Source: Bdellovibrionales bacterium
GTDB lineage: Bacteria > Bdellovibrionota > Bdellovibrionia > Bdellovibrionales > UBA1609
Direction: 5' to 3'
Assembly (NCBI GenBank): GCA_965116155.1
Contig: OZ220488.1
Span: 977,103-1,041,102, forward strand
DNA: 64,000 nucleotides
In this document: positions 1,627 to 57,750 of the stretch, piece by piece
How the letters are laid out: each line of letters begins with the position of its first letter
Position numbering within the stretch: position 1 is the stretch's first letter
The notes under the pieces: model-generated
Told to the model about the DNA's origin: nothing
Database searches by the model: none
The model's input: only the letters and a program-made list of their open reading frames with translations
Program-made: the position numbers and the translations under genes

Positions 1627-1735
1627 AGCGCTAGGAAAATGCCCTGGGACTAAGCGCAGTCTCTAGCGCAGCCCCCTTTAGGGGGTGTCCGCGATAGAGA
1701 CAAGCGTCCCACAGAATTTTGGGCTAGCACTCTAA
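1623..1735. repeat. Compact complete repeat element (113 bp) with TTAGAGCGCTAG / CTAGCACTCTAA inverted termini
   Basis: It fills the whole gap between two convergent genes and supplies both stop codons (1624-1626 TAG; 1732-1734 CTA = TAG on minus). The interior is nested hairpins (GGGAC...GTCCC, GCAGCCCCC TTTA GGGGGTGTCCGC). Confidence 0.85.
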
Positions 1736-4462: not shown

Positions 4463-4616
4463 ATGAACAAAAAATAGACGCCCTCTTTGTTGCCAAAAGC
4501 CACTAAATACCCTACCAGGGGGCATTATACAGAACCTTAATTGGCATGGGGATTGCATGCAAATGTTGCACTGTGGCACGTTGTTGCGCCGTGTCATATT
4601 AGAAGGAAATTGGCTT

Positions 4617-8509: not shown

Positions 8510-8559
8510 GGATAGCACATGACCTTGTAAAAGGATCGGACAAAAGTGGCCAGTAGCTC

Positions 8560-9148
8560 AAGGTGTCCATGGCGTTAAGATAATCTGGCAGGTCAGGTCA
8601 CGTCTGGGTGTATCGCGATCCATACAGCCTTGCCCTAGGCGACAGCGCTACCCTCAATTTACATAAATTGCACTTGCGGGTACGGGCTTGGACCTAACCT
8701 GCAGGGCCATAGATAGCTGTCTAGCGCGCAAAAATGCTTAACCTAGTGCGCCACCGCTTTGCTTCAGAGAATTTTACTAGCACTCTGATTGTATTTACCC
8801 GAACGCACGGAGCTTTGACGGCAGTCTGGTCGCCTTGTGCCTAACGATCGCACAAGGCTACAGGCTCATAGTAGCTTCATAGGTCGCAAAATTCTCTGTA
8901 AGACGCTTGGCACCCTGATGGCCGCCCCTTCACAGGGGCTATCAGGATGCCGGCGTGAGCTATCCAGCACGTGAGGGTGCCCTGGAATAGCCGCTTGCCT
9001 TGCACACCTTTAGGTGTGTCAGCAGGCTGCGCTCTCTGGCCAGGGCACCCTCACTAACACTTTTATGCTTACGCACTTAGCTTCAGAGAATTTTACTAGC
9101 ACTCTGATGCTTACGCACTTTGTCCCAGGGCATTTTCCTAGCGCTCTA
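8560..9148. repeat. Mosaic hairpin-repeat array
   Basis: Long-hairpin module at 8585-8723, a short-hairpin module (GCCTTGTGC...GCACAAGGC), a reverse-oriented AAAATTCTCTG...CAGAGAATTTT module with extra DNA inside it (8956-9080), and a CTAGCGCTCTAA terminus supplying the stop of the next gene. Confidence 0.85.
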
Positions 9149-11394: not shown

Positions 11395-11697
11395 TTAGAG
11401 CGCTAGGAAAATGCCATGTGGGACGCTTGTCTGGTATCCTTGGCTTTGACGGGAGTGTAGCAAATGAGGTCACGTTTCATTCGTTTCCTCTGAGCAAGAC
11501 CGGGTGCAGGCGGCATTATTTACCTCGATTTAGAGTATCCTCATTTCAGGTACGCACTTAGCCCTCATTTGCAGGGCCATAGATAGCTGCATAGACCGCC
11601 AAAGCACCTCTTGGTTTTCCACTTGCCTGACGCACCCAAAGGTGCATTGCCAGGCTGCGCTGCATGCAAGAGGTGCTTGGGCTAGTCTGTAATTAAT
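11395..11697. repeat. Mosaic hairpin-repeat array
   Basis: TTAGAGCGCTAGGAAAATGCC terminus, long-hairpin module at 11460-11593, and a CCAAAGCACCTCTTG...CAAGAGGTGCTTGGGCTAGTCTGTAA hairpin ending at the stop of the next gene. Confidence 0.85.
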
Positions 11698-18900: not shown

Positions 18901-19181
18901 AGGCTATTTTATCTACTTCTGAGGTGCGCTTGAGGCCAATTTTTCTCACCACTATGACCACAGTGTTTGGCCTTATGCCTACTGTGTATGGGCAGCAATT
19001 GAGTCAGCTCACCGGATGGGGCGGCAGTGACCCTTTTATTGTGCCTATTGCCATGTCGCTAGCCTGGGGATTGGCAATAGGGACTTTTTTGGTAACGCTT
19101 TTTATGCCCGCGTTGGTTCACATAACGCATGACATTTACGCAGCACTGGACAAAGTACAAAAAAGAGCATTCAGGGGCTAA
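15948..19181 (+). CDS. RND-family efflux transporter permease (AcrB/HAE-type)
   Basis: 1077 aa with 12-TM RND architecture and two large periplasmic loops. GTG start. No adaptor or outer-membrane factor gene is adjacent. Confidence 0.85.
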   Translation: MYSPTILLSAVRSIIRFFVREHLLSNVLTLLCVFAGVVSISGMRRAIWPDVEFNITVLSTILPGASSEKVEQLVTVPLEESLRPLKGIKSVSSTSTQNQSFIAIELDIDAQDPRRTNADIRRAIDQVTDLPEDSLKTQIDELDADDNGVLEVALSVRDDAKISDLDLAIQAKRVRDELSLLRESSLVVPNGLRDREYIVEASLEQLKRKRVSLQELLAALKLTNVSLPSGTLTQANGEEVLLRSSGEFYGVSDIENAVLRSNASGYHVRVKDVARVRKGLAPATRLYRAGGSPSINLMVSKKKSVDVYDLVAGIKNRMAELRPSIPEGIKIDYINDLSIYLTNRISTLRGNLILGLVLVVLLLMIFVPWPVALVVAVGIPIAFFAALSAAYAIGFSINVVSLLGLILVLGMLVDDAIVVSENIWRHVQQGGESLVDSIVEGTYEVFGAVVASVMTTVSVFSPMLVMSGVMGSFIFEIPSMVILALVFSLLEVFIIMPAHFISWVGPFARRVKAREKAGHGAYEKAQWFKKLTKIYVRFVGWSLKWRWAMGFGLVAFTAATAVLVYKTNKFKLFPTDGADVFFIALHAPKGSSLEHTAALAVPLEKLVSQLPRHELVDFSTSIGIVQQSPSDPFTQRGSHFANLRIRLSPINKRTRTADEIMAEIKAQTPSLKELGLEKIVYFKAQNGPPQGRDIQFSLLGDELNVLKKIALKLERTMQGVAGVQEVQNSYAEGKVEYSVEVLPLRAAQMGLSAFDIAQGVRLAVEGNTVSEIVHANESWDIRVKSVPRYGEDFLGSSTHTDLEKQLRGLVIGNARGALIPLREVSRIKQARSLSSIRRKDYKRAVSLAAEVDLTKSTPIKATAELKKLFKPIIAKHPNYSVVWGGQDQDTKESMASLMRAFGFSIFFVFMLLLITFKNIVQPLIILSSIPLGFAGVSYAMLLHNRPFSFMAMLGMIALGGVIVNNSIVFIDFTNKMLKKGAALREAILSTSEVRLRPIFLTTMTTVFGLMPTVYGQQLSQLTGWGGSDPFIVPIAMSLAWGLAIGTFLVTLFMPALVHITHDIYAALDKVQKRAFRG

Positions 19182-19541
19182 TGTGCGTAAGCATAAAAGT
19201 GGCCTCTTGAAATCTTGGGCGGGTAGCGTAGCCACCTGCTCCCCTATATGGGGTGCTGCGGGTGGCAAGCGAAAAGCCCCAGGATTTCAAGGGAGAACTG
19301 GATAGCTCGTCGACTATCGGGAAGATGCGCTTAATCCCATGGCACGAGGCTTTGACGGGAGTGTCGCGGCCTTGGGCTTAAAGATCGCCCAAAGCCGCAG
19401 GGCCGTAGTAGCTTCATAGGTCGCCACATGCTCTGTGGGACACTTGTCTCCAGCGTGGTCGCCCCTTTAAAAAGGGGCTACACTGGAGACTGCGCTTAGC
19501 CCAGAGCATGTGACTAGCGCTCTGATGCTTACGCATATCTA
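19180..19541. repeat. Mosaic hairpin-repeat array filling the convergent gap stop-to-stop
   Basis: TAATGTGCGTAAGCATAAAAGTGG + CTTGAAATCTTGGG...CCCCAGGATTTCAAG hairpin (homolog at 60944-61080) + short hairpin GGCCTTGGGC...GCCCAAAGCC + ACATGCTCTGTGGGAC...CCCAGAGCATGT hairpin + CTAGCGCTCTGATGCTTACGCA. Confidence 0.85.
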
Positions 19542-20600
19542 ACTTGCTACATTAAAGGAGGTGCGTACGCAGTTGCGGCCGGCATGTTTGGCGTCGTAAA
19601 GGGCCTTGTCGGCACGCTTGAAAAGCTGCTCCCATTTTGTATCGCCCGGCACTAGCGTCGCCACACCCACCGATACACTCACCGACAAAGGCCGCACGCC
19701 GCTTTCTGTAATGCCAGATAAAAACTTATGCGACGACACTGTTTTGCAAATATGCCTCGCCATCACAGCCCCATCTATACCGGACCGACCCGAAAGCAAA
19801 ATTACAAACTCCTCACCCCCAAAGCGCGCAAAAAAATCATCCTCACGCTTGAGCTCTTTTTGCACCACCTGCACCATCTCTTTAAGCACGTAGTCTCCCA
19901 ACTGGTGACCATAGGTGTCGTTAATTTTTTTAAAGTGGTCTACATCTAAAACTAGCAGACTAAAATCCTCGCCATATTTTTGTGCATGCATAAACTGCCT
20001 TTTGGCGTGCGACATCAAGCTTGCACGATTAAACACCCCTGTTAAAGCATCCAATCGCATAAGATTAAACAAATGCGGGTCAAAAGTGTTTTGAGGAAAA
20101 AACTGCAACACCAATCGGCCCATCTGAATACGGCTCACTCCATAAGAGTTCAACTCATACGGCACATAGGGCACGAGCTCGTGAATACGTTTTTTGCCCT
20201 TCAAGCCCAAATCACCCGTCACAATAACCCGTGTTCCATTAACAGACTCTTGATCCGATATAAATACACGCTGACTGGACTCGTCCCCCCTGACATCAAT
20301 AAGAGCATGCGACTTGCTCACGCCGCTCCCCACTCCATAAGCCACTATGTCGGCATCAGACGAACTGCCTACCATGTACTCTTTGGGCTCTAAGTTCCAA
20401 ATGCTTAAGTCATCAAAGTTCACCAGCACCGGAGGGTGAGACAGCTTGGTTTCAGGCGCGAGGCTATCTACTGTTAGCATCATGGTTTTATCTACAACAC
20501 TCGTATCGCCGCTCCTTTTTTGCTGAGGCTCTGCTGCCGGCTGATCAGAAAACAAACCCTGTTTGTTGTCAATTTTGTTGGTGTTGATTTTTTTGCCCAT
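19539..20600 (-). CDS. diguanylate cyclase with N-terminal FHA-like domain
   Basis: GGDEF domain (RFGGEEF, DHFKKINDTYGH). The preceding segment resembles FHA (GSSSDADIV...VSKSHALID...FISDQESVNGTRV). Confidence 0.8.
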   Translation of the reverse strand: MGKKINTNKIDNKQGLFSDQPAAEPQQKRSGDTSVVDKTMMLTVDSLAPETKLSHPPVLVNFDDLSIWNLEPKEYMVGSSSDADIVAYGVGSGVSKSHALIDVRGDESSQRVFISDQESVNGTRVIVTGDLGLKGKKRIHELVPYVPYELNSYGVSRIQMGRLVLQFFPQNTFDPHLFNLMRLDALTGVFNRASLMSHAKRQFMHAQKYGEDFSLLVLDVDHFKKINDTYGHQLGDYVLKEMVQVVQKELKREDDFFARFGGEEFVILLSGRSGIDGAVMARHICKTVSSHKFLSGITESGVRPLSVSVSVGVATLVPGDTKWEQLFKRADKALYDAKHAGRNCVRTSFNVAS

Positions 20601-23271: not shown

Positions 23272-23715
23272 TTGGTCTGTATGGAATCAAATGTATACAT
23301 GCGCTTTAGGGGCGCTTTAGAGTTTTCTGACTTTGGTCCGAAACCAGTTACGTATATGGATTTTTACAAATTTTCATTAGCTGTGTGTTTGTGGGCTTTT
23401 TTTATGTATGCCTTGGGCGGGTGGTTTTTAATTAAAAACTCTACCCCGGGCGCCACATTGGCAAATGACAAAAACATAGGAAAAGTTGCGCCCACCCATG
23501 GTTATGCGGTGGGGTTTCCGTTTGAAGTATATGTATCTAAACACAATCCCCAAGCCCACGCAGGCAAGGCTGTGTCCCGTAGACGCGTGCCAGCAAGCGA
23601 AAGCCTCACGGCACAAGAGCTCTTGGACCCCAATGCCGTGCAAGACGAATCAGAGCTCCAGCCCTCTGACGATTACCCTATGATGTACGATTTAGAGGAA
23701 CAATTAGAGCGCTAG
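23272..23715 (+). CDS. hypothetical single-TM protein
   Basis: TM segment FSLAVCLWAFFMYALGGWFLI. The true start may be ATG 23356. The last codons LER-stop are read from TTAGAGCGCTAG. Confidence 0.4.
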   Translation: MVCMESNVYMRFRGALEFSDFGPKPVTYMDFYKFSLAVCLWAFFMYALGGWFLIKNSTPGATLANDKNIGKVAPTHGYAVGFPFEVYVSKHNPQAHAGKAVSRRRVPASESLTAQELLDPNAVQDESELQPSDDYPMMYDLEEQLER

Positions 23716-27715: not shown

Positions 27716-28398
27716 CTTTGCGTAAGCATAAAAGTGCCAGCAAAAATGTGTGAGCATAAAAGTGTTAGTGAGGGCGCTCGCACGTGCTGGATAGCTTCTG
27801 ACTTCAGCCCTACGCAGTCCAGCTGATAACGAAGGGCCCCGCAGGGGAACGAAGCGTCCAAACTCACTTCAAAGGCAGGGAGGCTGCGCTTCATACTCAA
27901 GTTTTCCATAGCGTTAAGACAATCTGGCAGGTCAGGTCACGCCTGGTTTTTTCGCGATCAATAAAGCCCGGCCGCAGGCGACATTACTTGTCTCAATTTA
28001 CCTACAATTGCACTTGCGAGTACGGGCTTAGACCTAACCTGCAGGGCCATAGATAGCTGCATAGACCGCCAAAACACCTTGTTATTCCACTTGCCTGAAG
28101 CGCCTGAAGGCACTTTACCAGGCTGCGCTTCATACTCAAGTTTTCCATAGCGTTAAGACAATCTGGCAGGTCAGGTCACGCCTGGTTTTTTCGCGATCAA
28201 TAAAGCCCGGCCGCAGGCGACATTACTTGTCTCAATTTACCTACAATTGCACTTGCGAGTACGGGCTTAGACCTAACCTGCAGGGCCATAGATAGCTGCA
28301 TAGACCGCCAAAACACCTTGTTATTCCACTTGCCTGAAGCGCCTGAAGGCACTTTACCAGGCTGCGCTTCATACTCAAGGTGTTTTGGCTAGTCTGTA
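27716..28398. repeat. Mosaic hairpin-repeat array containing a perfect 2 x 239 bp tandem duplication
   Basis: Units 27882-28120 and 28121-28359 look identical by eye. Each holds a long-hairpin module (27924-28063, 28163-28302). The array ends in CAAGGTGTTTTGGCTAGTCTGTAA, which encodes the last residues of the S41 protease. Confidence 0.95.
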
Positions 28399-30534
28399 AA
28401 GATCTCTCGCGATGTTGATGGCTTCTTGGATGCGGGCCTGCTCCATGTACTCTTTGTCTCGATCGGCTTGCTCACGTTTGTACTTTTGAGCACTCGTCAA
28501 AGAGGCACGCTGTTGCTTGGTTTTTTTCTTTTTGCTCTTTGCCTTTTGGTCGTCCTCTTTTAGCTCTTTTAAGATTTCGGACAAATAAATAAATTTAGCC
28601 CTTTTTTTGTTTTTGTCTTTTTTTACCTGGGTTAAGATTTTTTTAAATTTTTTGTCCTGCTTTAACCTTTTGCGCGAAGCCGCTTTTAGTTTAGACACCA
28701 CGGCTCGGCTTAGCTTTTGCCAGGTGGGCTTTCTATGCTCGGCCTTATCCACAAAACTTGCGATTCTGGCAGACCCTAACACATAATCCAAACTCTGCTC
28801 GCCCCATTTGCTCATAGCATCATAACGGCTAGGCAAAACCACATCACCCATAACTCCCACATTTTGTGTAGACTGCCCACCTGCTGTAAAAAATAAGCCC
28901 GAAGTCACTTTTAAGGCCCCCAGCTTACCCTTAGGGCAACCCACGGCATTTACCTCCTGCACACTGCCCTTGCCAAAAGTGCGCGCACTGCCCACCACCA
29001 AGGCGCGGCCGTAATCACGCAAAGTGCCCGCCACAATCTCACTCGCACTAGCGCTGCCACGAGAGGTCAGCACCACCAATGGGCCCGACCACACCACATC
29101 GGCGTCTTTATCCAAGTAGTCTATATATTTGTAACGCACCTCCTTAGAGCGCCGACGCGTTTTTTGCCTCTGCGACTGCTTTACGACATTGGGTTTGCGC
29201 AAAAACAAACCCGCCACCTTAACGGCTTCGTCTAACAACCCACCACCATTAAAAGACACATCCAGCACCACCGCCTTAGCGCCCCGCAACTTTGCCGCTT
29301 GAAGCAATTTGCGCACATCTTTCGACGCTGCTACATCACGCGAACCCTGATAAAAAGACGGCAAATCAATCACCGCCACACTGACCTCTTGGCCACCCAG
29401 CTTGCGCGTACGGTAATGCACCTTGGCCCGCTGCTCCTCGAGGCTGATTTTTTTGCGGGTTAACGCAATAACAAACTGCTCAGGACCTTTGTCTGTTGTG
29501 CGCAAAATACCCAGCCGCACCACCGTGCCAGCAGGGCCACGGATTTTTTTAACCACATCATTCAAGTCTACGTCCCGCACTAGCTCCATAGGGCCACTCA
29601 CCCCCTGACCCACTTGCACGATTTTATCCTCTGCCTCCATTTGGCCCGACTCCATAGCCGCGCCCCCCGGCAACAAACGGTTTACAACCGTAAAGCCATC
29701 CTGAAAACTCAACTCCGCCCCAATTCCAGAAAGCGACAGCTGTGTGTTAATTTGCAAAGACTCCAGATCAGACTGTGTCATATACAAAGAGTGCGGATCC
29801 AAGGCCTTTGTAAAAGCCTGCAAATACGACTCGAGCAGCACTTGGCCAGAGGCGTCCTTTTGAGCCTTTTGCAGCATGCGCTCGTAGCGCCTTAAAATTC
29901 TGCCTTTAACTTTTTTCAGCTCATCGCCCGACGCCACCAGCTGAGCCACCAATAACTGCAAGTTGCGCCTAGTCTCTAGCCTCTGCACCGATACCGTTTT
30001 AGGCCACTGGCGATCCTTAGTATCTAGCAAAACACGGGTCCTAGGCTCCAAACGAAAAGTCTCCGGCGCCAGCTCCCGACGCACAAAGTTCACCACCTCT
30101 TGTAGGCGCTTTACATAAAGAGCATGCACCTTTTGCAAAACGGAGCAGTTTTTTCTGTCAACCTGCGCAAACACCCCTCGCATCCATTTGCGCACCTGCC
30201 TAGTATCGCTTTTTAAAAAAAACCTTTTCGAAGGGTCTAGGTGATCAATATAACGCTCAATGGTGCGGTTCTCTAGCTCTGTATTAAGGCCCACAAAACT
30301 CACATGCCGCGACAGGGCTTCGGATTTAATATATTTGACCGAAGCGCAAGAGAGCTCCCTTTGTTCCACCGGGCACATAAAGCTAAGGCTCTTGGCAATA
30401 GCCGACAAGGCCTGAGCCTCAGCGCGCGCACCAAAAGCCCCAAGGCTTAAAAAGAGCATGCAAGTGGCAAAAAACACCCACCAGTTGCGTGCCTTACGTC
30501 CAAACCCCATAGCCCTTACAGCACCATCCAACAC
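28375..30534 (-). CDS. prc: carboxy-terminal processing (tail-specific) protease, S41 family
   Basis: PDZ-like region followed by the S41 catalytic region (LTSRGSASASEIVAG, Ser; FGKGSVQ, Lys) and a lysine-rich C-terminal extension. Confidence 0.8.
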   Translation of the reverse strand: MLDGAVRAMGFGRKARNWWVFFATCMLFLSLGAFGARAEAQALSAIAKSLSFMCPVEQRELSCASVKYIKSEALSRHVSFVGLNTELENRTIERYIDHLDPSKRFFLKSDTRQVRKWMRGVFAQVDRKNCSVLQKVHALYVKRLQEVVNFVRRELAPETFRLEPRTRVLLDTKDRQWPKTVSVQRLETRRNLQLLVAQLVASGDELKKVKGRILRRYERMLQKAQKDASGQVLLESYLQAFTKALDPHSLYMTQSDLESLQINTQLSLSGIGAELSFQDGFTVVNRLLPGGAAMESGQMEAEDKIVQVGQGVSGPMELVRDVDLNDVVKKIRGPAGTVVRLGILRTTDKGPEQFVIALTRKKISLEEQRAKVHYRTRKLGGQEVSVAVIDLPSFYQGSRDVAASKDVRKLLQAAKLRGAKAVVLDVSFNGGGLLDEAVKVAGLFLRKPNVVKQSQRQKTRRRSKEVRYKYIDYLDKDADVVWSGPLVVLTSRGSASASEIVAGTLRDYGRALVVGSARTFGKGSVQEVNAVGCPKGKLGALKVTSGLFFTAGGQSTQNVGVMGDVVLPSRYDAMSKWGEQSLDYVLGSARIASFVDKAEHRKPTWQKLSRAVVSKLKAASRKRLKQDKKFKKILTQVKKDKNKKRAKFIYLSEILKELKEDDQKAKSKKKKTKQQRASLTSAQKYKREQADRDKEYMEQARIQEAINIARDLYRLAKTP

Positions 30535-35251: not shown

Positions 35252-35902
35252 ATGCTGTTTTATATTGATAGCGCTAACTTAGCAGACATCAAGCAAGCCA
35301 AAAAAAACCACCTGCTCGATGGAGTAACCACTAACCCCAGCCTAATAGCTAAAGCCGGCACAGATCCACAAAAGCTTTTAAAAAGCATTTGTGACACCTG
35401 TGCGCCCTTACCAGTTTCGGTAGAGGTGCTTAGCACCGACACACAGGGCATGTTGCGCGAGGCGGAGCGTTTTTGCCAAATGGCTTCTAATGTGGTGATT
35501 AAAATCCCTATGACCTTGCCTGGCATGGAGGCGGTGCGGGTACTAGCTCATAAGGGTATTAAAACCAATGTCACCCTTGTGTTTAATGTGCTGCAGGCTC
35601 TTTTGGCGGCGCGTGCAGGAGCTACAATGGTGTCGCCATTTGTGGGGCGCCTGGACGACACAGGCACAGATGGCATGCAGCTTGTGGAGGAGATTTTGCT
35701 TTGTTACCAAAACTACGCCCTTAAGACCCAAGTGTTGGTGGCTAGTGTGCGCCATGTGGGGCACCTTAAGCAGGCGGCTCTTTTGGGGGCTCATATTGCA
35801 ACAGTGCCGTTTAAACTTATGCAAAGTTTGGCTAAGCACCCCCTTAGTGACTCTGGTTTGGAGCGCTTTTTAAAAGATGCTAAGCGTTTTTCAAAAAACT
35901 AA
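35252..35902 (+). CDS. transaldolase-family enzyme (type 3B / fructose-6-phosphate aldolase-like)
   Basis: 216 aa. FYIDSANL...GVTTNPSL...IKIPMT...SPFVGR motifs. Confidence 0.85.
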   Translation: MLFYIDSANLADIKQAKKNHLLDGVTTNPSLIAKAGTDPQKLLKSICDTCAPLPVSVEVLSTDTQGMLREAERFCQMASNVVIKIPMTLPGMEAVRVLAHKGIKTNVTLVFNVLQALLAARAGATMVSPFVGRLDDTGTDGMQLVEEILLCYQNYALKTQVLVASVRHVGHLKQAALLGAHIATVPFKLMQSLAKHPLSDSGLERFLKDAKRFSKN

Positions 35903-35933
35903 CGCCAAAGCCGCGCATTTTTTGAGCCCTCAC

Positions 35934-36605
35934 ATGCTACAGATCAGTGCATGGGCGCGAAGGTGCCTTAAGTGCGGCACCCTTTGGGGAGAGTCGGATC
36001 CTTTTTGTAAAGTATGTTGGCAGGTTGTTCTTATGCATCAATTGCATAAAAAAAACCAAGCTCGCCTGCCGCAAATGCATAGAAAGGATTTTTTATTTGT
36101 GTACGATGACGCTGCAGCAGATGTTAAAGGCTTGCTGCTATACCTTAAAAACTTTTCCCATAGTACGGCTTATATCAGACTGGCGTCACACTTTGTGCCG
36201 GGGGAGGATTTTTTTTATCAGCTTGAGCAAAGGCCACGCGCGAAATTGTGGTTCATAGCTCCGCCTGCACAGACGGAGGGCGGAGGCAGCCATGCTCAAG
36301 AGTGGGCTAAGGCTTTAGCCCATAATTACGGTGGAGAGTTTTGCCATGACCTGTTGCAATACACCGAGCGGCGCGTATCGCAAAAACTACTTACCAAAAA
36401 GGCGCGCCAGGGTCTTAGGTTTAAACGCACTGGCCGTTTCCCCGGTTCGCTAGAAGAGGATGTGGTTATTTTTTGTGACGACCTACTTACAACGGGATCC
36501 AGCGCCCATGCCGCCTGGCTCGCCCTCAACAAACCTCCGCACTTTTTTGCTTGGACCATCGCATTTAGGCAATTACAGACTAGCCAAAACACCTTGAGCA
36601 TGTAG
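35934..36605 (+). CDS. ComF-family phosphoribosyltransferase-like protein
   Basis: N-terminal Cys pairs (CLKCG...CKVCW) and a C-terminal PRTase-type loop (VVIFCDDLLTTGSS). The last ~10 residues (QTSQNTLSM) are read from a repeat terminus. Confidence 0.6.
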   Translation: MLQISAWARRCLKCGTLWGESDPFCKVCWQVVLMHQLHKKNQARLPQMHRKDFLFVYDDAAADVKGLLLYLKNFSHSTAYIRLASHFVPGEDFFYQLEQRPRAKLWFIAPPAQTEGGGSHAQEWAKALAHNYGGEFCHDLLQYTERRVSQKLLTKKARQGLRFKRTGRFPGSLEEDVVIFCDDLLTTGSSAHAAWLALNKPPHFFAWTIAFRQLQTSQNTLSM

Positions 36606-36690
36606 TGCAGCCGCCTTGGCAGTCCCTGCAAGGGGCGCCAGCCAAGGTGGTGCGCGGAATATTATCAAGGTGTTTTGGCTAGTCTTTAAA
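36573..36690. repeat. Compact complete repeat element (118 bp) with TTACAGACTAGCCAAAACACCTTG / CAAGGTGTTTTGGCTAGTCTTTAA inverted termini
   Basis: It spans the gap between convergent genes. The inner hairpin is GCCGCCTTGGC AGTCCCTGCAAGGGGCGCC AGCCAAGGTGG. The right-hand TTA is the stop of 36686-38458. Confidence 0.85.
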
Positions 36691-38458
36691 TTGCTGCACA
36701 TTGGTACTTAAATTTGTACTGGCCACTGTCTAGAGGGCCAGAGCATGTGGTGGCACCATTAGACTCTACACATTTTTTGCAGTCCACTTTTAGATTATCG
36801 ATAAGCGTACATTGGGGCTGGGGCGACAAAGGCTGGTCCGATGCATCCAAAACCTCAACCAACCTATGCCCAGCATTTCGCGCATCATAAGGATCAGCGT
36901 TTTTGTAGTTTAAAGGCTGACACTCTAGCTCCACCTGCATCACCATGCGACGCGCTTTGCCTGCCACCTCTTGCAAAACAGAGGCATAAGTATCCATAAT
37001 TTCCACATCACCAAACAAGCCGCCTGTTAATTGGGTCATAACCTGGTAGCGCCCGTCTCTTCTGTTGTCTTCGCGCTTATTTAAAATGCTATGCCACACG
37101 AAAGACGCCTGAGGAAAAATTGACACCGCAGCGTCTCGTACCTCTGCAGAAGTTAAGTGTGTGAGCGGTTGTTTTAGTTTTTGCTGCTCTTTTTTTGTCT
37201 CCCAAATATATTCATCACCCTCATCTGTAAGCAACACCACAACCAAGTGGCGCAGATTTTGAAAAAACCAAAGCCCACTGCTATCGAGTATTGCCTGCTT
37301 AGTTTTGTTATTATCGTACGCGCGGATAAGTTTTAAAAAACTCGCTAGCGCACTTTCAATAGGCGACCCCTGCTCCATACACAAGAGCGTTTGCTTGAGA
37401 GAGTTTTTGGCACTTAAAAAATTCGCAGCATCGTTTCTATTAGCTTGTTCTCCATCCAGCAAGGGCGCACGATCTAAAACAAAACGGCCCTTGTTACTTG
37501 GAGGCTCTCTAAAGTTTTGGCAAGCTGGCCCGCCCCTTTGTGTAAACGCATTGCCCAGAGGATCCACCAAGGCTCTAAAAGGTTGCCCCACACCCTCTTG
37601 TGAAACCCTATAATAATCCGTAGTAGTAACCGCGACCCTATACTTTAAACCCTGCATAGCCTTTAATAACCTTGGCACACCCCGCTTAGCCAGCGCATCC
37701 TGTTTGTCCTCCATAGATTCTGAGTTATCTACCATCAAAAGCAGGCCCACGCGCTCAAGCTCGGTGCTACTATTAGCCGTAATTTGCTTATCTGTACGCC
37801 CGCAGTCCACACCGTAACACCAGCTGTGGTCTTGCACGGGGCTTGTGTTGCCCGCGACATCTGTAGCCTTAACCTCAAACTTATACGCTCCGCCAGTGGT
37901 ATGCGAAAAACTATACGGACTGGTGCATGCAACAAAATCCTCGCCATCTAAAGCCTCTACTGTAGCCGCGCGGCATAGTACTGTTGCAATACCCGAGCCA
38001 TCTGCATCATCCACTACAAAATGCACCTCTGCTGTGGGTGCTTGTGTAACACTCGCAACACTTTGTTCGACTGTAATAGTCACAACAGGCGCTGTAGAAT
38101 CCACTGTGGCAGGTGGCGTTTGAGCAGGCGGGATTTTCTTAGGGGGTGTTTTGCCAGAGAGCGGATTTGCTGGTGGTGTTTTAGAGGGAGATTTTTTTGA
38201 GGCCGGCCTTTTTTGTGGAGGATTTGCAACAAACTTTACATCTTCACAAGAGTTATAAAAAAATGGCAAAGCTAAAAACGCAGCAGCCAGTAATGCTAAA
38301 AAAAGCCTTGAGCCCCAAAAGGCTGCTTCTTTGGGGGTTTTGTTTTTTGCACGTTTGTTTGTCTTTTTGTGATTAAAGGGTGCCGCTTTTGAGGCTTTAT
38401 GCTTTTTTGCCTTGCTGCGCCGTACAGCTTTTTTTGACCTATAATTTTTTTGACTCAT
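36686..38458 (-). CDS. membrane-anchored surface protein with Ig-like and VWA-like domains
   Basis: Poly-basic N-terminal tail, a TM segment, and a conserved LALPFFYNSCED segment. Ig-like segment (DSTAPVVTI...KFEVKATDVAGN). VWA-like segment with a DxSxS-type VDNSES motif. Paralog of 47247-49421. Confidence 0.6.
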   Translation of the reverse strand: MSQKNYRSKKAVRRSKAKKHKASKAAPFNHKKTNKRAKNKTPKEAAFWGSRLFLALLAAAFLALPFFYNSCEDVKFVANPPQKRPASKKSPSKTPPANPLSGKTPPKKIPPAQTPPATVDSTAPVVTITVEQSVASVTQAPTAEVHFVVDDADGSGIATVLCRAATVEALDGEDFVACTSPYSFSHTTGGAYKFEVKATDVAGNTSPVQDHSWCYGVDCGRTDKQITANSSTELERVGLLLMVDNSESMEDKQDALAKRGVPRLLKAMQGLKYRVAVTTTDYYRVSQEGVGQPFRALVDPLGNAFTQRGGPACQNFREPPSNKGRFVLDRAPLLDGEQANRNDAANFLSAKNSLKQTLLCMEQGSPIESALASFLKLIRAYDNNKTKQAILDSSGLWFFQNLRHLVVVLLTDEGDEYIWETKKEQQKLKQPLTHLTSAEVRDAAVSIFPQASFVWHSILNKREDNRRDGRYQVMTQLTGGLFGDVEIMDTYASVLQEVAGKARRMVMQVELECQPLNYKNADPYDARNAGHRLVEVLDASDQPLSPQPQCTLIDNLKVDCKKCVESNGATTCSGPLDSGQYKFKYQCAAI

Positions 38459-40068: not shown

Positions 40069-40953
40069 TTAGACAGATTTCAGAGTTAGTTTTGGCCTTA
40101 CTCTGGCTCTGTTTTTCCCTAGAAAGCTGTTAATAAAGGCTTCTGGGGTAGAGTTACCGAGCGATGAGTGCGGCCTACATTTGTTATAGTCTTTTCTCCA
40201 CGTTTCCACAATAGATCTAGCATCATCCAAGCTTGAAAAGCAATTTCCCCTAAGGCACTCGTCTCGCATTTTTCCATTAAAACTCTCTATAAATCCATTT
40301 TGACTCGGCTTTCCTGGCTCAATATAACTGAGCTCAACCTTATTCTCAAAGGCCCATTGATCAAAGTTTTTACTTGTAAACTCTGTCCCATTATCCACCC
40401 GTATAAACTCAGGCACAGGATAATAGCGCCTCTTGGAATTTAAAAAACCCACCAGCTTCCTTGAATCAATTGCGTAGTCAACAAAAGAACCTATGCATTT
40501 TCTCGAAAAAATATCCAATACATTCAGTATACGAATTTTCTTTCCATCGCGAAGCCTGTCTTGCATAAAGTCCATTGCCCAAACCTGATGAGGACGCTCC
40601 GCAAGTGGCAGAGTATGCCGTATATGCTTCGCCCTTTTCTTTTTGTTCTTTCTACGAAGCTGAAGCCCTGCCGAAACATAGTAACGATAAAGAGTATTCC
40701 TAGCCACCTTCACTCCCTCTCGCATTAAAAGCACGTGCAAACGCTCATAGCCAAATCTCGGCCGATCCCCAGAAAGCTCTATAAGACGCTTCATAATCAC
40801 TTCCCTTTTAGACCTCTGCCTATGCCTCTTCTTATAATAAAAAGACGCCCTGTTGAGCCCTAAGACCTTGCAAACCCTTTTGACTGAAACTTTATACCTA
40901 GATATTAAAACTTTAGCCGCATTGGTACGAATGCAAGGTCTTAGAACTTTTTT
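40069..40953 (-). CDS. IS3 transposase OrfB (DDE catalytic part, expressed as OrfAB by -1 frameshift)
   Basis: The -1 frame is open from the heptamer A_AAA_AAG at 40947-40953. DDE region: WAMDFMQD ... [10 protein letters not shown] ... [17 protein letters not shown]. Confidence 0.85.
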
Positions 40954-41210
40954 TCAAGAACATCCTGCAGCATCTGCTTGTCTAAAGTCAGATTAGCAAC
41001 AATTTTCTTCAACCTTGAATTCTCATCCCTCAAACTCCTTAGCTCTTTTATTTCACTCACATCCATACCAGAATAAAGCTTTTTCCAGCGATACAATGTA
41101 GTCTCTGTAACCTCAAGCCTCCTGCATAGATCTTTGCCCGAAATCCCGTTCTCCAATTGCTTCAAGGCACATATAATCTGACCATCACTAAACTTTCTGC
41201 CTCTTGCCAT
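40941..41210 (-). CDS. IS3 transposase OrfA (HTH)
   Basis: 89 aa with a helix-turn-helix region and a leucine-zipper-like C-terminus. The frame ends just after the slippery site at 40947-40953. Confidence 0.85.
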
Positions 41211-49450: not shown

Positions 49451-50159
49451 TTAGAGTGCTAGGAAAATGCCATGGGATTAAGCGCATCTTCCTGGTAACC
49501 CCTGAAAGGGGTGTCCACCAGGAAGATAAGCGTCCCACATGGCATTTTCCGGCCTATAAGGAGTCTATGGCCCTGTAAATCGAGTGAAAGCGGCGCACCT
49601 GAAATGAAGCTCGTGTAGAACAAGGCAAATAACCACGCCTGCGGCCGGATGCGCTTGGTTAAGGTGAGCTGAGCGGACTCGATTTACCACACTTCCGTCA
49701 AAGATATGAACACCTCTTGCATGAAGCGCAGCCTCCTTGGCTAACGCGTCTTAAGGCGCTGCCAATGGGACACATAGTCGCTTCATAGGTCGCCACATGC
49801 TCTGATGCTTACGCAGCTAGCGCTCTGATTTGGGTTTACTCAATGCACGGGGCCTTGACGGGAGTGTGGTAGCCTTGGGTCTATCGAGCACCCAAGGCTA
49901 CAGGCTCATAGATCCCTTATTAGCTGTCTAGCGCGCAAAAATGCTTCAGGCAGGACCACTTGTCCATCTGATGGCCCGCGCCTAGAGGCGCTATCAGCTG
50001 GACTGCGTAGGGCTGAAGTCATTTTTGCTGGCGCTTTTATGCTTACGCTTATAGGTCGCAGAATTTTCTGCGGGACGCTTGCTACCATCGCGGCCGCACC
50101 CTACAGGGTGCTGCGATGATAGCGCCGCTTTGTCCCAGAAAATTCTGCTAGCACTCTAA
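49451..50159. repeat. Mosaic hairpin-repeat array (about 0.7 kb)
   Basis: TTAGAGTGCTAGGAAAATGCC...GGCATTTTCC hairpin, reverse-oriented long-hairpin module (~49565-49715), GCTCTGATGCTTACGCAGCTAGCGCTCTGA, short hairpin GCCTTGGGT...ACCCAAGGC, TTTTGCTGGCGCTTTTATGCTTACGC, and terminal CTAGCACTCTAA inside the 3' end of the next ORF. Confidence 0.85.
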
Positions 50160-50904
50160 TACTGGTGTATTTCTCTATAGAGGATCTGAGCAAAAAAGTC
50201 GCATGCTTAAGTGATACGGCTTGGGTGGTTAAAAGCAACTCTATTGCACCCGTGCCATAGGCATCGTTATGCGCATACACACCGCGCACAAAATGCATCC
50301 CAAAACACCTCATAAGACCACGCCAAAAACAAGCCCACAAATGAGTCGCTATATGTGTAGAAGGCAAGCGCGGATGGTATTGCTCGAATAACAAAAACCT
50401 CACCACAGCATCTATTTTGCGGGTTATAAAAAACCCCGCCCCCATAGCCTGCATAATAAACAAACCATAAAAGCTCGCCCTATGGGTTAAAAAACACATC
50501 TGATACGCCAGCAGCGCCTTTATATCCATCGGCAGTAAATTATTCAGCAAATGCTCTGACAGCACAATATGCCCTTGCCGAGTAAAAGACGAAAACGCAT
50601 AACAAAGCACCTTTGTACCCGGCACAATATGCAAATGCGGCCTAGATAACTTAAAGCCTTTTTGTTGCAAAATTTTGTGCCATTTTTCTATCTCAACCTG
50701 CACCCCCCAAGGATCGCGCCCCAGTGTTACGGGCGGCAGCGCCGACACAGATATCCTATACGCAAAATAAACCCCATACGCCCACGCACCGAGCACCAGT
50801 ATAAAAAACAGCGCCCCCATCGAGTACAAACTTTGCCCCAACACCCCTGCACCCACAGCCATGCCAAAGCAAATCGCTCCCAATACCAGCGCACGCCAAC
50901 TCAT
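50101..50904 (-). CDS. membrane protein with M48/HtpX-like fold but degenerate zinc motif
   Basis: Start trimmed to ATG 50904. ALLAYQMCFLTHRA sits where M48 peptidases have xxxAHELGHxxxxx. The C-terminal ~20 residues are read from repeat DNA. Confidence 0.4.
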   Translation of the reverse strand: MSWRALVLGAICFGMAVGAGVLGQSLYSMGALFFILVLGAWAYGVYFAYRISVSALPPVTLGRDPWGVQVEIEKWHKILQQKGFKLSRPHLHIVPGTKVLCYAFSSFTRQGHIVLSEHLLNNLLPMDIKALLAYQMCFLTHRASFYGLFIMQAMGAGFFITRKIDAVVRFLLFEQYHPRLPSTHIATHLWACFWRGLMRCFGMHFVRGVYAHNDAYGTGAIELLLTTQAVSLKHATFLLRSSIEKYTSIRVLAEFSGTKRRYHRSTL

Positions 50905-50939
50905 AAAAGACTGGTCCTTTTTAGTGCACAATACACCCG

Positions 50940-51110
50940 TGAAGCCTACGTTGGCCACCTTGGCGCTCCTGCGTTGCAAATGGCTGCACTCTAATGCTTA
51001 CGCACTTATAGGTCACCAAAACACCTCTTGCTTTTTCGCTTGCCTGGTGCTCCAAAGGCGCTTTACCAGGTTGCGCTACACGGCACGAGGTGTTTTGACT
51101 AGTCTTTAAA
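50940..51110. repeat. Mosaic hairpin-repeat array
   Basis: GCACTCTAATGCTTACGCACTTATAGGTCACCAAAACACC...GGTGTTTTGACTAGTCTTTAA. Ends 1 nt before the stop codon (51111-51113) of the next gene. Confidence 0.8.
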
Positions 51111-54004: not shown

Positions 54005-54061
54005 CGGCAGTCTGGACATTTTTGTTGGCACCTTGATGCTTACGCGTTACTCTGTACAGTT

Positions 54062-55861
54062 GTGACGGATTCCATAATACAGCACCACTCTACTTTTGTA
54101 CTCATGTGTGCCGGCATAGCAGCGTTTTTGTATGGCATGGGGCTTGTAAGCTCGAACCTTAAAAAACTCACAGCCAACCGCACAAAAGACCTTTTGCAAA
54201 ATCTGAGCAAACGTCCCCTTTGGGGTTGTGCAGTAGGGGCATTGCTTTCGGCCCTTATGCAGAGTGCAGGAGCGGTGAACACCATGCTAGTAGGCCTTGC
54301 CCAGGCTAGGGTGGTGAGCCTAAAGCAGGTCATCGGCGTGGTGCTAGGTGCCTCGGTGGGCAGCACTCTGACGGTGCAGCTGATCTCTTTGCAAGTTTAT
54401 CACTATGGGCTGGGGATTTTTGCCATAAGTTTTGCAGGGATGTTTTTTGCTAAGAAAATGCTCCTTAAAAGTAGCTGTCACGCGGCCATGGGAGTGGGGC
54501 TTTTGTTTATGGGCCTTGAGTGGATCAGCTTTAGCAGCATGGCGCTTAAACAGTCGCCGTTGTTTTTAAGCGCACTGGAGCAGCTATCGCATATGCCCTG
54601 GGCTGCCATGTTGGCTATGGCGGCTTTTTCGGCTTTGGCGCAATCGGCAACAGCGGGCTTAGGGCTTACGATCTCTTTTGCTACGGCGGGTGTTATTAAT
54701 TTTGAGCAAGCTCTTTACTGGGTGTATGGAGCCAATATTGGATCTACTGCTACGGCCCTTATGGCAGCTATTGGAGGCACAGCCGCTGCACGCCAAGTGG
54801 CTTGGTCGAACTGTGCTTTTAAAATCTGCTGCGTTGGGGTGTTTTACTTTTTAACTCCTTATGTTGCTGGATTTGTGCCTGGCTCTACTCCGCAGCGTTT
54901 AGTAGCTAATGCCCATACTTTGTTTAATCTTTTGGGTGTGTGCATGGCGCTACCCATAAGCCACTGGGTGGTGGGTTGGCTAGAGCGTAGTATTGGGCCT
55001 TCGGCAGCAGAGCGTAAATTTGATGTGCAATTTTTAAACAAGCCGCACTTTAACTCACTGCCTGTTAGGTTAACCCATGCGCGCCGCGAGGCCCTGCGCA
55101 CAGCGGATGTGTTTTTGTCGGTGCTAGATGATGCTATTTTGTTAATTCAAAACGAAAACACCGAGCTATGGTCTAGTGTAAAAAAACGCGTCAGGCATAT
55201 TGATTTTTTAAGTCTCGAGGTGAGTCGGTTTTTGGCTCGTGTTGCCCATAAGGCGCCCCCTCCCTTGGATACAGAGGTGATAAACGTTGTAGCCTTTGTG
55301 ACGGATGTTAAAAATGCCGCCAGTGTTATAGACAAACAACTGCGGGGCCAGGCGAAAAAAAAGCACAAACTCAAGCTTAATTTTCATGCGCAAAGTTTTA
55401 GCGAAATCCGCCGGCTCCACAAAGAAAGCCTCAACCTGTGCACTTTGTCTTTTAGTGCTTTTCAAAACTCCTTGCAAAGCCATGCTACGCACGAGCAGGC
55501 CATGCAGATTATGCGTCTTAAACGGCATATTAAAAAGTTCGAAGCCACTTTTAGGGTGCAGCATCTTAAGCGCGTGGCGGAGGGCAAAGAGCACTCTTCT
55601 GTAAGCCCGATGTATTTTGATATCATCACCAGCTTTCGCAAAATTTCCGGCCTGCTCAGCAACCACCTTAAGCCCTTACAGACTAGCCCAATATTCTGGG
55701 ATAAAGCGGCGGCGCGAGAGCAGCACCCTCAAAAGGGTGCGCCCGCGATGGCGCCAAGCGTCCCGCAGAATATTGGGCGGTCTATGCAGCAATCTATGGC
55801 CCTGCAGGTTAGACCTAAGCCCGTACCCGCAAGTGCAATTGATATTAACCAAGGCCAATAA
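54062..55861 (+). CDS. Na/Pi cotransporter family protein with PhoU-like C-terminal region
   Basis: Polytopic N-terminal half (QSAGAVNTMLVGLA, QSATAGLGLTISFA repeats) and a helical PhoU-like half. Roughly the last 60 codons (from ~55677) are read from repeat DNA, so the native C-terminus is uncertain. Confidence 0.8.
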   Translation: MTDSIIQHHSTFVLMCAGIAAFLYGMGLVSSNLKKLTANRTKDLLQNLSKRPLWGCAVGALLSALMQSAGAVNTMLVGLAQARVVSLKQVIGVVLGASVGSTLTVQLISLQVYHYGLGIFAISFAGMFFAKKMLLKSSCHAAMGVGLLFMGLEWISFSSMALKQSPLFLSALEQLSHMPWAAMLAMAAFSALAQSATAGLGLTISFATAGVINFEQALYWVYGANIGSTATALMAAIGGTAAARQVAWSNCAFKICCVGVFYFLTPYVAGFVPGSTPQRLVANAHTLFNLLGVCMALPISHWVVGWLERSIGPSAAERKFDVQFLNKPHFNSLPVRLTHARREALRTADVFLSVLDDAILLIQNENTELWSSVKKRVRHIDFLSLEVSRFLARVAHKAPPPLDTEVINVVAFVTDVKNAASVIDKQLRGQAKKKHKLKLNFHAQSFSEIRRLHKESLNLCTLSFSAFQNSLQSHATHEQAMQIMRLKRHIKKFEATFRVQHLKRVAEGKEHSSVSPMYFDIITSFRKISGLLSNHLKPLQTSPIFWDKAAAREQHPQKGAPAMAPSVPQNIGRSMQQSMALQVRPKPVPASAIDINQGQ

Positions 55862-56035
55862 TCACGCCTGCAACTGAACCTTATTAATCATATAAAACCA
55901 AGGCGTGGTCTGACCTGCCAGATTGCCTTAACGCCATGAACACCTGGAGTATGCAGCGCAGCCACCCTGACAGCCTCCTTTAGGAGGCGAGCACTCAGGA
56001 GTGGCAAACGGAATGTTATCAAGGTGTTTGGGGGA
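55677..56035. repeat. Mosaic hairpin-repeat array overlapping the 3' end of the Na/Pi cotransporter ORF
   Basis: TTACAGACTAGCCCAATATTCTGGGA...TCCCGCAGAATATTGGGCGG hairpin, reverse-oriented long-hairpin module (55794-55921), GCAGCCTCC TTTA GGAGGCGAGC hairpin, and CAAGGTGTTTGG. Confidence 0.85.
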
Positions 56036-56048
56036 ATTCCATTAAGCA

Positions 56049-56401: not shown

Positions 56402-56450
56402 CACTGCCGCAAGAATAAAGGATATTTTATCCTTTATTCTTGCGGCAGTG
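56402..56450 (-). terminator. Perfect 23-bp stem / 3-nt loop hairpin overlapping the stop codon of 56434-57750
   Basis: CACTGCCGCAAGAATAAAGGATA ttt TATCCTTTATTCTTGCGGCAGTG. On the minus strand it is followed by TTGTTGG, a weak U-tract. A direct copy of the 19-mer lies at 56292-56310. Confidence 0.4.
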
Positions 56451-57750
56451 GTATGACGGGAGGCAAGCCCAAGCCTTTGGCGGGAGGGTATTCGGGACGG
56501 CGACGGTTTCGGGGGTTGCATTTGGGGTCTTTGTTGGGGTCACAAGGCACACGCCCATCGGTGCGCCTTTTTACAGGCGGTGCAGGCGACACGCTGTCCA
56601 CCATGCCGCGTGTCATTTTATCGACGATGCGTTTCATGCTTGTGGTTTCAGCTTTTTCTACCATCCCCGGCAGTTGGTCTGTGCCTAAAATAATCCCTCC
56701 ACTCGCATGCACCTCTAAACCTGTTGCGGCATCGCGCAAAGCAAAGCCCCCCAGCTCCACCGCCGTGCTGGCGTAGAAAAAATCCACCCCCGTCACTCCT
56801 CCAGGCAAATCCTTATTCACCAAGACTCCTGCTTTATAGCTAGCCGTGCGGCCTTTTAAAGCATGGGTCGCCGCGGCTCCCAGCATTAAGCCTTTAAATT
56901 GATCAGGCGAGTTGAAGTTCTTGCCCCCCCAAATGAGTCCACCACCCAAGCGCAGGCGGTTTTTGGATTTCGCATTATCTACACGCGCACCATAACTCAC
57001 TCCAGGTGAAGTCCACAGCACTAAACTGGTGCGCATATTCCAGCCCGAGCTCATCTCGTGAGGCGGGAACTTGTTGATCCTTTGCACCCACACCGGCATA
57101 AATACCACGCCCAGACTTACACTTACACCAGCGCCCAAGCGGGGCCTGAACACTTTGGTTAAAGCGTTTAGCGCCATGGTGTAGCTTTTTTTCGACTGCG
57201 CCTCATTAGACTTCCACCCCAAAAAAAGCATAAACGCATCGGGAGCCAAAAGCTTGGCGCGGGTTTTGTTTTCTGCCAGCTGCATGCTAAGAGCATCGGC
57301 CTCAAAGAGCTCATTCAGCTCGCGGCAACGCTCGGCAATAATTTGCACCCCCTTTAGCACTTCGCGAAAAGCAAGCCGATTTTTAGGAAAACCCTTCACC
57401 AAGGGAGTGCGAACGTTGGTGGGCTCCCCATCCGCTTCGCCATCTTGCTCATCGCCATCTGAGGACTGGGAGTTTGGGGAGGCAAGCGCATCTTGGTTAG
57501 GCACCCAGTACATAGGCGGCGTACCATCGTCGTATTCAGCAAAGATAATATCCTGCAAACTCAGCGCAGCGGACTCCATCATCTTTTTAAATCTGGCATC
57601 ATCGCGCAGAATATACTGCCCCCAGGGCACAACCTGATACACATACTGGCTGTCTTGCAAAAGCTCCACTCCCCACGCACCCCAACCCCAAGGAGCAAAG
57701 TAAGCAAACAAAGCCAAAACCACAATCCGCAAACGCAAAACAAACAACAT
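56434..57750 (-). CDS. hypothetical secreted/membrane protein
   Basis: 438 aa with an N-terminal hydrophobic segment, an acidic stretch, Gly-rich beta-like C-terminal two-thirds and a basic Pro-rich tail. No family recognised. Confidence 0.55.
   Translation of the reverse strand: MLFVLRLRIVVLALFAYFAPWGWGAWGVELLQDSQYVYQVVPWGQYILRDDARFKKMMESAALSLQDIIFAEYDDGTPPMYWVPNQDALASPNSQSSDGDEQDGEADGEPTNVRTPLVKGFPKNRLAFREVLKGVQIIAERCRELNELFEADALSMQLAENKTRAKLLAPDAFMLFLGWKSNEAQSKKSYTMALNALTKVFRPRLGAGVSVSLGVVFMPVWVQRINKFPPHEMSSGWNMRTSLVLWTSPGVSYGARVDNAKSKNRLRLGGGLIWGGKNFNSPDQFKGLMLGAAATHALKGRTASYKAGVLVNKDLPGGVTGVDFFYASTAVELGGFALRDAATGLEVHASGGIILGTDQLPGMVEKAETTSMKRIVDKMTRGMVDSVSPAPPVKRRTDGRVPCDPNKDPKCNPRNRRRPEYPPAKGLGLPPVIPLPQE

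Follow-up and report, generated by a model that had tools for sequence, protein, structure and literature searches.

Palindromic mobile repeats that reach into the 3' end of a gene, and thereby alter the C-terminus of its product, have been described in several bacteria. In Erwinia carotovora, an ERIC/RU-1 element has eliminated the normal stop codon of the amidase gene ECA3499 and added 35 residues past the conserved domain, the orthologs of this protein being uniformly shorter (Delihas, 2007, PMC2759123). In Coxiella burnetii, QMITE1 and QMITE2, which are miniature inverted-repeat transposable elements (MITEs), extend 1-50 bp into the 3' ends of functional genes, to which they contribute a stop only or 8-16 residues; in every functional gene affected, it is the 3' end that carries the MITE, enhC in the Dugway strain gains 33 residues from QMITE2, and the authors credit tolerance of C-terminal change (Wachter et al., 2018, PMC5896051). 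Here, we consider a 64,000-nucleotide stretch of the genome of a Bdellovibrionales bacterium (contig OZ220488.1 of assembly GCA_965116155.1, positions 977,103 to 1,041,102, hereafter the window), in which the gene for a Na/Pi cotransporter and four others end inside palindromic repeats, whose two main types of end we call T1 and T2. This adds a further case to an effect that MITE insertion is already known to have, and the repeat family involved, from a Bdellovibrionota-like genome, had not been characterised before. A first-pass annotation of this DNA had taken the C-terminal location of the repeat-encoded segments as a novel twist, a claim that has to be withdrawn in view of ECA3499 (PMC2759123) and QMITE1/QMITE2 (PMC5896051).

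Other families are relevant too. Rickettsia palindromic elements (RPEs) are palindromic repeats of 105-146 bp that occur as in-frame fusions inside protein genes, in 19 reading frames (Ogata et al., 2000, via PMC2229807). Correia, ERIC and RUP elements have TA at their termini and a target-site duplication (Table 1, PMC2229807), IS630 has been proposed as the mobiliser of RUP, and a 107-bp form of Correia occurs fused to open reading frames (ORFs) (PMC2229807).

Repeat-encoded ends of five genes

The longest repeat-encoded tail belongs to the Na/Pi cotransporter, for which the following features can be delineated.

54062..55861, plus strand: Na/Pi cotransporter ORF, 599 aa, uninterrupted
54062..55675, plus strand: conserved core, residues 1-538 (Pfam domains, ortholog alignment and profile, AlphaFold2)
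55676..55861, plus strand: repeat-encoded C-terminal tail, 61 codons and TAA stop (repeat DNA, no counterpart in orthologs)
55677..55785, no strand: first palindromic MITE-like unit, with T2-type end TTACAGACTAGCC (single hairpin; aligns with 15 other units of the family)
55773..55969, no strand: second repeat module, holding the last 25 or so tail codons and the stop (BLAST identities within the window)
55939..56044, no strand: third module, a T2-type unit with a degenerate right end (73% identity to 36588-36678)

In Pfam, the core matches the domains Na_Pi_cotrans (E=4e-44) and PhoU (E=6e-6). A search of 5.8 billion proteins identified 47 orthologs (531-548 aa, query coverage 85-91%), the nearest of which (531 aa) is 46% identical; the named matches come from Bdellovibrionales-type metagenome-assembled genomes, and the identical 599-aa protein is recorded in NCBI and ENA. 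In an alignment with 14 full-length orthologs, conservation reaches ...SNHLKP (residue 538), and beyond the last conserved column these orthologs have just about 4-20 unconserved residues. Likewise, a profile of 46 orthologs pairs residues 6-536 with nodes 3-531 of 542, which makes the gene full length relative to its orthologs and places the end of homology, which the first-pass annotation had proposed to locate by such an alignment, at residue 536, with a tail that the orthologs lack. An AlphaFold2 model (72-sequence alignment; mean predicted local distance difference test score, pLDDT, of 90) draws the same border, since the core stays above 90 to about residue 540 and successive 10-residue blocks of the tail score 81, 61, 50, 53, 47 and 39, so that the structure prediction suggested for the tail yields one of low confidence.

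The tail opens at codon 539 (TTA, 55676-55678), reads LQTSPIFWDK...SAIDINQGQ, and comprises 61 residues (codons 55676-55858) followed by a stop at 55859-55861. Its composition is basic (pI 10.3), with many A, P and Q residues. All 61 codons and the stop sit within interspersed repeat DNA that covers 55677-56044, in good agreement with the roughly 60 entirely repeat-encoded residues first reported. When 55600-56150 was compared with the window by BLAST, 55683-56032 proved to be repeat DNA, with E values against other copies from 1e-45 to 8e-16. Specifically, 55683-55785 matches 50051-50151 on the minus strand (77% identity, E=8e-16), 55773-55969 matches 27876-28073 and 28121-28312, both minus and both about 80% identical (E=1e-45 and E=2e-43, respectively), as well as 8557-8719 (minus, 74%, E=2e-23), and 55939-56032 matches 36588-36678 (73%); the further matches of the region are 1644-1724, 11505-11603 and again 36588-36678. 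The first unit, flanked by TA at 55677-78 and 55783-84, encodes approximately the first 36 tail codons and folds into one hairpin (-59.7 kcal/mol, z=-7.3), while the whole 391-nt region folds with z=-4.4. The right boundary of the third module, as judged from its sequence, would lie at a candidate TA at 56043-44.

Looking for the tail elsewhere gave little. A word search with the tail alone had no match, and HMMER against 1.84 billion representative proteins returned its own protein and two weak multi-stretch matches, which are likely to be compositional; homologous tails from repeat-free genomes, which were to count against a repeat origin, were thus not found in these searches. The locus of the nearest ortholog has no BLAST match to the window repeats, and its downstream spacer contains an apparent tRNA gene. 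On the other side of the cotransporter gene, a solo GCGTAAGC-type repeat fragment is found at 54013-54046, within the 57-nt upstream spacer, with 15 nt between its outer end and the GTG start, which means that this gene has family members on both sides.

Four other genes have shorter tails.

50101..50979, minus strand: orphan 'M48-like' ORF with a 19-residue repeat tail
50101..50160, minus strand: 'M48-like' tail, 19 codons (IRVLAEFSGTKRRYHRSTL) and TAG stop, read from a T1 end in the open frame
35877..36605, plus strand: ComF-like ORF, ending LQTSQNTLSM, from a T2 terminus at 36573
28375..30534, minus strand: S41/Tsp protease, ending YRLAKTP
28375..28399, minus strand: 7-codon S41/Tsp tail YRLAKTP and TGA stop, from T2 read in another frame than in the ComF-like ORF
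23703..23715, plus strand: tail LER and TAG stop of ORF 23272..23715, from a T1 end

The 'M48-like' tail is read from a T1 terminus at 50160, its unit (50051-50160) folds at -54.2 kcal/mol, and its 19 residues agree with the count of about 20 given earlier for 50101-50160; the label itself is weak (Pfam E=0.036), and a homolog search with this protein found itself only. The ComF label, based on TIGR00201 at E=0.007, is also weak; here, the tail amounts to 10 residues (36573-36605, plus strand). In the S41/Tsp protease, the NCBIfam profile PRK11186 reaches 661 of 663 at residue 712 of 719, and the extra residues are therefore exactly the last seven. Finally, the three residues LER and the stop of ORF 23272-23715 lie within ATTAGAGCGCTAG, as had been noted, and come from a T1 end. 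All five junctions are as the first-pass annotation described them; that the repeat DNA 'is translated', as it put it, is what the reading frames would predict, and the same applies to the Na/Pi tail with its uninterrupted frame. Judged on the DNA, the location of these tails in repeats is far beyond chance.

Why some genes run on is explained by a simple frame logic. T1 carries stops in two frames (AT TAG and A TTA GAG CGC TAG, spaced by codon) and so does T2 in its TTAAAG form (T TAA and TT AAA GAC TAG), while the third frame, measured in 28 termini, remains open for 8-141 codons, typically 40-odd. This bears out the earlier proposal that an ORF reads on when it enters a terminus in the stop-free frame, and it makes the 61 codons of the Na/Pi tail an ordinary length, even though an ORF entering repeat DNA at random would find 12 open codons in the median, and at least 61 in 2.5-4% of cases. 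Moreover, one and the same T2 sequence is read as LQTS... in the ComF-like ORF and as YRLA... in S41/Tsp, which accounts for the endings QTSQNTLSM and YRLAKTP much as first proposed, and the Na/Pi and 'M48-like' tails use related T1/T2 unit DNA in different phases. A hidden conserved ORF in the repeats (cf. DUF1658 in Coxiella) was considered and rejected, the frame-0 translations of the 28 termini being unconserved and stopping at varying places. Since the tails come from different frames and these frame-0 peptides are unconserved, there is no common repeat peptide.

The repeat family and stop codons

Self-comparison of the window puts its repeated share at 11.5%, nearly all of it intergenic. 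The units are palindromic, typically about 105-117 nt long, with inverted ends (about 25 nt) and flanking TA, and are often nested into arrays. The T1 end ATTAGAGCGCTAGKAAAAT has 18 matches in the 64 kb vs 0.05 expected by chance, and the T2 end TTAMAGACTAGCCAAAACACCTTGAG has about 10 copies. Sixteen units aligned from their T1/T2 ends form one family of 93-117 nt with common ends and a GC-rich apex, and the four that were folded make single long hairpins (-52 to -73 kcal/mol, z=-5.6 to -10). TA is present on both flanks in all four solo units (1622-1736, 36573-36689, 38490-38582 and 39871-39998), although this TA could belong to the inverted ends, and two of them, 1622-1736 and 36573-36689, pair end to end. 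In short, the elements are small, non-coding and dispersed in many copies, and have terminal inverted repeats and a long stem-loop, as do MITEs, whose size is about 100-600 bp. Repetitive extragenic palindromes (REPs), by contrast, measure about 20-40 nt, are imperfect as palindromes, are associated with RAYT transposases and are not known to have TA flanks. An origin of the REP/RAYT or IS200/IS605 type (TTAC target) was set aside, given that the present units, at 105-117 nt, have long inverted ends and are flanked by TA on either side.

How these repeats meet gene ends was assessed by aligning 49 curated ORFs at their stop codons. A repeat is directly joined to 20 of the 49 gene ends (the stop being in, or abutting, the repeat end). 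In 12 genes, the stop lies inside repeat DNA, with zero added residues in seven of these: five in which TAG is followed by AGCGCTAG (T1 end) and two in which TAA is followed by AGACTAGCC (T2 end). Five genes read on into the repeat, and in eight the repeat end comes 0-4 nt after the stop. Equally telling, 20 of the 26 array boundaries that face the 3' end of a gene overlap the stop or are at most 3 nt away, whereas the 13 facing a 5' end all stand 6-625 nt away from it. Inside the 49 genes there are no T1/T2 ends, bar one match with three mismatches that is consistent with the chance background. Examples of stops supplied by repeats, including those of two solo MITEs, are as follows.

9146..9150, minus strand: stop rebuilt by a T1 end, no added residues (TTAG)
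41377-41381, minus strand: stop rebuilt by a T1 end likewise
59489-59491, plus strand: stop rebuilt by a T1 end likewise
30944-30947, minus strand: TAA stop from a T2 end
1622..1736, no strand: solo 115-bp MITE, each end of which supplies the TAG stop of one convergent gene
36573..36689, no strand: solo 117-bp MITE between convergent genes, with near-perfect inverted ends (-72.6 kcal/mol, z=-10)

The genes stopped by the 115-bp MITE are 937..1626 (plus strand) and 1732..2190 (minus strand). The 117-bp MITE provides LQTSQNTLSM and a stop to the ComF-like ORF on the plus strand and a TAA stop (36686-36688) to ORF 36686..38458 on the minus strand. In the intergenic regions 1622-1736, 5142-5652, 19183-19535, 23703-23875 and 36573-36689, each between convergent genes, there is nothing but repeats.

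The association of repeat ends with stop codons is thus strong, and the tails are a minority outcome of this wider pattern, which the first-pass annotation did not state. The exact placement might reflect target choice, or the stop codon might be nearly the sole TA at which insertion is tolerated in a compact genome. A more ambitious idea, which we regard as possible but rather doubtful, is that of a MITE superfamily that would specifically target the TA of stop codons (T-TA-R), with end bases, G or A, that evolved to rebuild the stop. If so, (i) some 40% of the gene 3' ends of a compact genome would have been colonised with little damage, (ii) the hairpins would serve as the usual 3' ends of transcripts and (iii) the tails would be a failure mode, arising with C as the end base or with TA in the wrong codon phase.

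Several observations on the repeats deserve mention in their own right. A tRNA gene (615-701) is adjoined without a gap by an array (702-901) that starts with a T1-like end (AGTTAGAGTGCTAGC), which means that repeat ends also meet the 3' ends of RNA genes. Composite arrays of nested or concatenated units reach about 700 nt, and two have been duplicated in tandem, 27881-28358 (239 nt x2, 100% identity) and 10987-11390 (202 nt x2, 99% identity), which points to duplication in the very recent past or to a problem with the assembly of repeat DNA. At 9042-9159, there are three head-to-tail copies with a 42-nt period (GCGTAAGCATCAGAGTGCTAGTAAAATTCTCTGAAGCTAAGT), whose T1-like ends are preceded by GTGCGTAAGC; ends with this prefix follow the stops of 14..520, 4557..5141, 15948..19181 and 19539..20600, directly or within a few nt. 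A T2 end is found twice at the identical position inside a T1 end (GCTAGTAAAGT/TA/AAGACTAGCC; 23703-23735 and 38568-38600), which could reflect a preferred TA at which nesting has recurred or, alternatively, the spread of a composite end as such. In 61209-61411 and 63534-63734, a repeat unit, a spacer of about 20 nt and the start of the downstream gene recur together; the two starts are signal-peptide-like (MSNLTLNM... and MKNLTLTL...), which points to a segmental duplication in which gene starts were copied with the adjoining repeat.

An Rfam scan of the window reported two tRNAs only, with no known RNA family over the repeats; a scan of a collection of genome contigs with the T1 end gave four unrelated single matches; and searching metagenomes twice, with the T1 and T2 ends, turned up either no match or chance 19-mers without wider similarity.

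Origin and fate of the tails

We think it probable that the tails are collateral products of palindromic mobile elements placed at or near stop codons, rather than a functional module. In the proposed mechanism, a large non-coding palindromic mobile family would have inserted, or only survived, at the TA of stop codons or in the last few codons, and the first base of the element end would decide the outcome at the gene terminus. TA followed by G (T1 end, GAGCGCTAG...) or by A (T2 end, AAGACTAGCC...) would rebuild the stop and leave the protein unchanged. With TA followed by C, or TA in another codon phase, the ORF would enter the terminus in a frame without an early stop, and translation would then proceed into the repeat until a chance stop. 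The resulting tails (3, 7, 10, 19 and 61 residues) would add to, or replace, a native and poorly conserved C-terminus, as by-products that would be neutral or mildly harmful. The individual cases can be read in these terms: in S41/Tsp, a T2 end with C gives TAC (Tyr) in place of a stop, which would account for its tail, and in the Na/Pi and ComF-like genes it is the TA at codon positions 2-3 (TTA) that would do so.

Excising the elements in silico is instructive. When the 115 bp of 1622-1736 are removed and one TA is left, both convergent ORFs keep their lengths (229 and 152 aa), with TAA stops that overlap in TTAA. Removing 36573-36689 in the same way leaves ORF 36686..38458 at 590 aa with a TAA stop and lengthens the ComF-like ORF from 242 aa to 247 aa and gives it another tail, LNCCTLVLKFVLATV, which implies that the repeat replaced the native tail there and did not simply add one. 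These outcomes would fit insertion at TA with duplication of the TA.

A number of points weigh against this reading. The TA duplication and the direction of events are drawn from reconstruction. Deleting 55679-56044 yields an in-frame Na/Pi protein of 564 aa that ends ...IFLRGPSCAFCAYPILSL and superficially recalls the ortholog motif xFLRG, but scores no better on the ortholog profile (585.4 vs 585.7 bits), while removal of the array from the 'M48-like' gene creates an implausible 306-aa ORF that enters the next gene. The abutment to stops could stem from selection in a compact genome and not from target choice, and the list of 49 ORFs is the author's curation of mechanical ORF calls. Finally, no autonomous element with matching ends was found in the window, whose only transposase, identified by eye, is that of an IS3-family element (40069-41210, minus strand). 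Elements of the IS3 family do not duplicate TA. This element, which is flanked by repeat units at 39871-39998 and 41270-41381, consists of an OrfA of 89 aa (40941..41210) resembling an IS3-type helix-turn-helix protein and an OrfB of 243 aa (40069..40800) resembling an integrase, both by eye.

The alternatives differ in what they make of the same DNA. The most serious, although an unlikely one in our estimation, is that the Na/Pi tail is rarely or never made: a hairpin of about -60 kcal/mol would stall ribosomes, or be cut or terminated, leaving a stopless mRNA to tmRNA rescue and the transporter down-regulated. The folding of the first 36 tail codons into a near-perfect hairpin, given above, speaks for this, and Liang, Rudd and Deutscher (2015) reportedly found that REP hairpins near stop codons lower translation via trans-translation. 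The Coxiella authors propose the same fate for enhC extended by QMITE2 (PMC5896051). Yet, ribosomes routinely unwind hairpins during translation, a terminator scan gave no convincing site inside the Na/Pi tail, and gmk of Rickettsia, which harbours an RPE, is translated into an active enzyme (PMC2229807). Less probable still is that tails have been recruited for function, for example as a disordered stretch with a regulatory or localising role at the PhoU-like, cytoplasmic end of the transporter, in line with the domain tinkering proposed for RPE and RU elements. The length of the Na/Pi tail, its A/P/Q-rich and basic character, its presence in NCBI- and ENA-derived records, which carry the tailed proteins as called, and the contrast between the 40-odd codons for which the terminus frame is typically open and the much lower median on random entry all speak for this. 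However, that frame is open in intergenic copies too, which means that no selection in a gene is needed for it, the frames differ between genes, and the frame-0 peptides of other copies are unconserved with stops at varying places. In addition, no credible homolog of the Na/Pi tail turned up among the 1.84 billion representatives, beyond its first block the tail is predicted at a pLDDT of 39-61, and the closest ortholog by which conservation can be judged is just 46% identical.

That the tails result from an artefact (misassembly or a frameshift error in the repeats) or from decay (a gene turning into a pseudogene) has a very low probability. Repeat-rich regions are prone to misassembly, and perfect tandem copies lie nearby at 27881-28358 and 10987-11390, but the junction is in unique sequence right after an intact, high-confidence core without internal stops, and five independent genes obey one frame logic, with seven more showing exact regeneration of the stop. 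Nothing beyond the shared sequence speaks for the reverse course of events, namely an ancestral tail whose coding sequence gave rise to the intergenic repeats. We give this next to no credence, because the orthologs have no tail, because the tail covers parts of three modules that occur elsewhere in other combinations, and because the first of these makes up a palindromic unit in its entirety, the family of which has many copies between genes. Tails arising as collateral products of mobile elements thus remain the reading we prefer.

Elsewhere in the window, a perfect 20-bp hairpin (CTGCCGCAAGAATAAAGGATA...) at 56404-56448 overlaps the stop of ORF 56434..57750 (minus strand) and resembles a terminator without a T-run; a partial second copy is found 110 nt away at 56291-56323. 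GAT/GAC-rich coding repeats with a 9-nt period, which specify Asp-rich stretches, are present at 7659-7749 (ORF 5651..8518) and 10809-10872 (ORF 9146..10972), both on the minus strand. ORFs 9146..10972 and 11693..13339 have Peptidase_M10 domains and are paralogous (10060-10390 matches 12450-12781).

Comparison with known mobile repeats

There are practical consequences for annotation. Five of the 49 proteins have C-terminal residues derived from repeats and seven more owe their stop codon to one, and ortholog comparisons, domain boundaries and structure models in this lineage should allow for such ends. The window is a dense natural example of the capacity of mobile hairpin elements to remodel C-termini, and the repeats are a possible source of new disordered tails. 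Nevertheless, the main interest lies less in the tails themselves than in why repeat ends match stop codons so exactly.

The resemblance to RPEs proposed by the first-pass annotation holds for the palindromic shape and for the entry of repeats into annotated proteins, with an effect judged neutral or slightly harmful, but not for the in-frame fusion within genes in one frame. Compared with RPEs, which we know here by description, the ORFs of the window terminate inside the element in a frame that varies from gene to gene, none of the 49 genes has an internal insertion, and translation, as demonstrated with gmk, has been shown for RPEs only. Two RPE-like models were accordingly set aside: in-frame insertion with the host frame on both sides, since all five tailed ORFs end inside the repeat, and a consistent frame with a shared peptide, since T2 is read as both LQTS... 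and YRLA....

Correia/NEMIS elements in Neisseria and RUP in pneumococcus are similar in that they are units of about 100-155 bp with inverted ends and TA termini, a likeness of ends drawn by description, and form long hairpins in transcripts (PMC2229807); that source does not list a systematic location on stop codons for them. The REP/BIME of enterobacteria and pseudomonads share with our family hairpin repeats that are arranged in mosaics directly downstream of genes. QMITEs share the overlaps at gene 3' ends, although element sequence and host differ and MITEs make up about 0.9% of the Coxiella genome (PMC5896051). Furthermore, the elements in the window regenerate the stop exactly through the first base of their end, which PMC5896051 does not describe, and Coxiella insertions change protein mass little, whereas the Na/Pi tail is some 45-55 residues longer than those of its orthologs.

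The closest precedent is the fusion of ERIC/RU-1 to the 3' end of ECA3499. Like our family, enterobacterial ERIC/IRU/RU-1 elements are palindromic MITEs (about 127 bp) with TA termini, for which TA duplication is documented, their different frames give different peptides, and a stop inside the element ends the ORF (PMC2759123). Unlike them, the repeats of the window, with which no sequence relationship was seen, reside in a different host phylum, are far denser (11.5% of the window, with 12 of 49 genes having their stop inside repeats), are nested into arrays, and have produced a tail that, at 61 aa the longest of the window, crosses parts of three modules.

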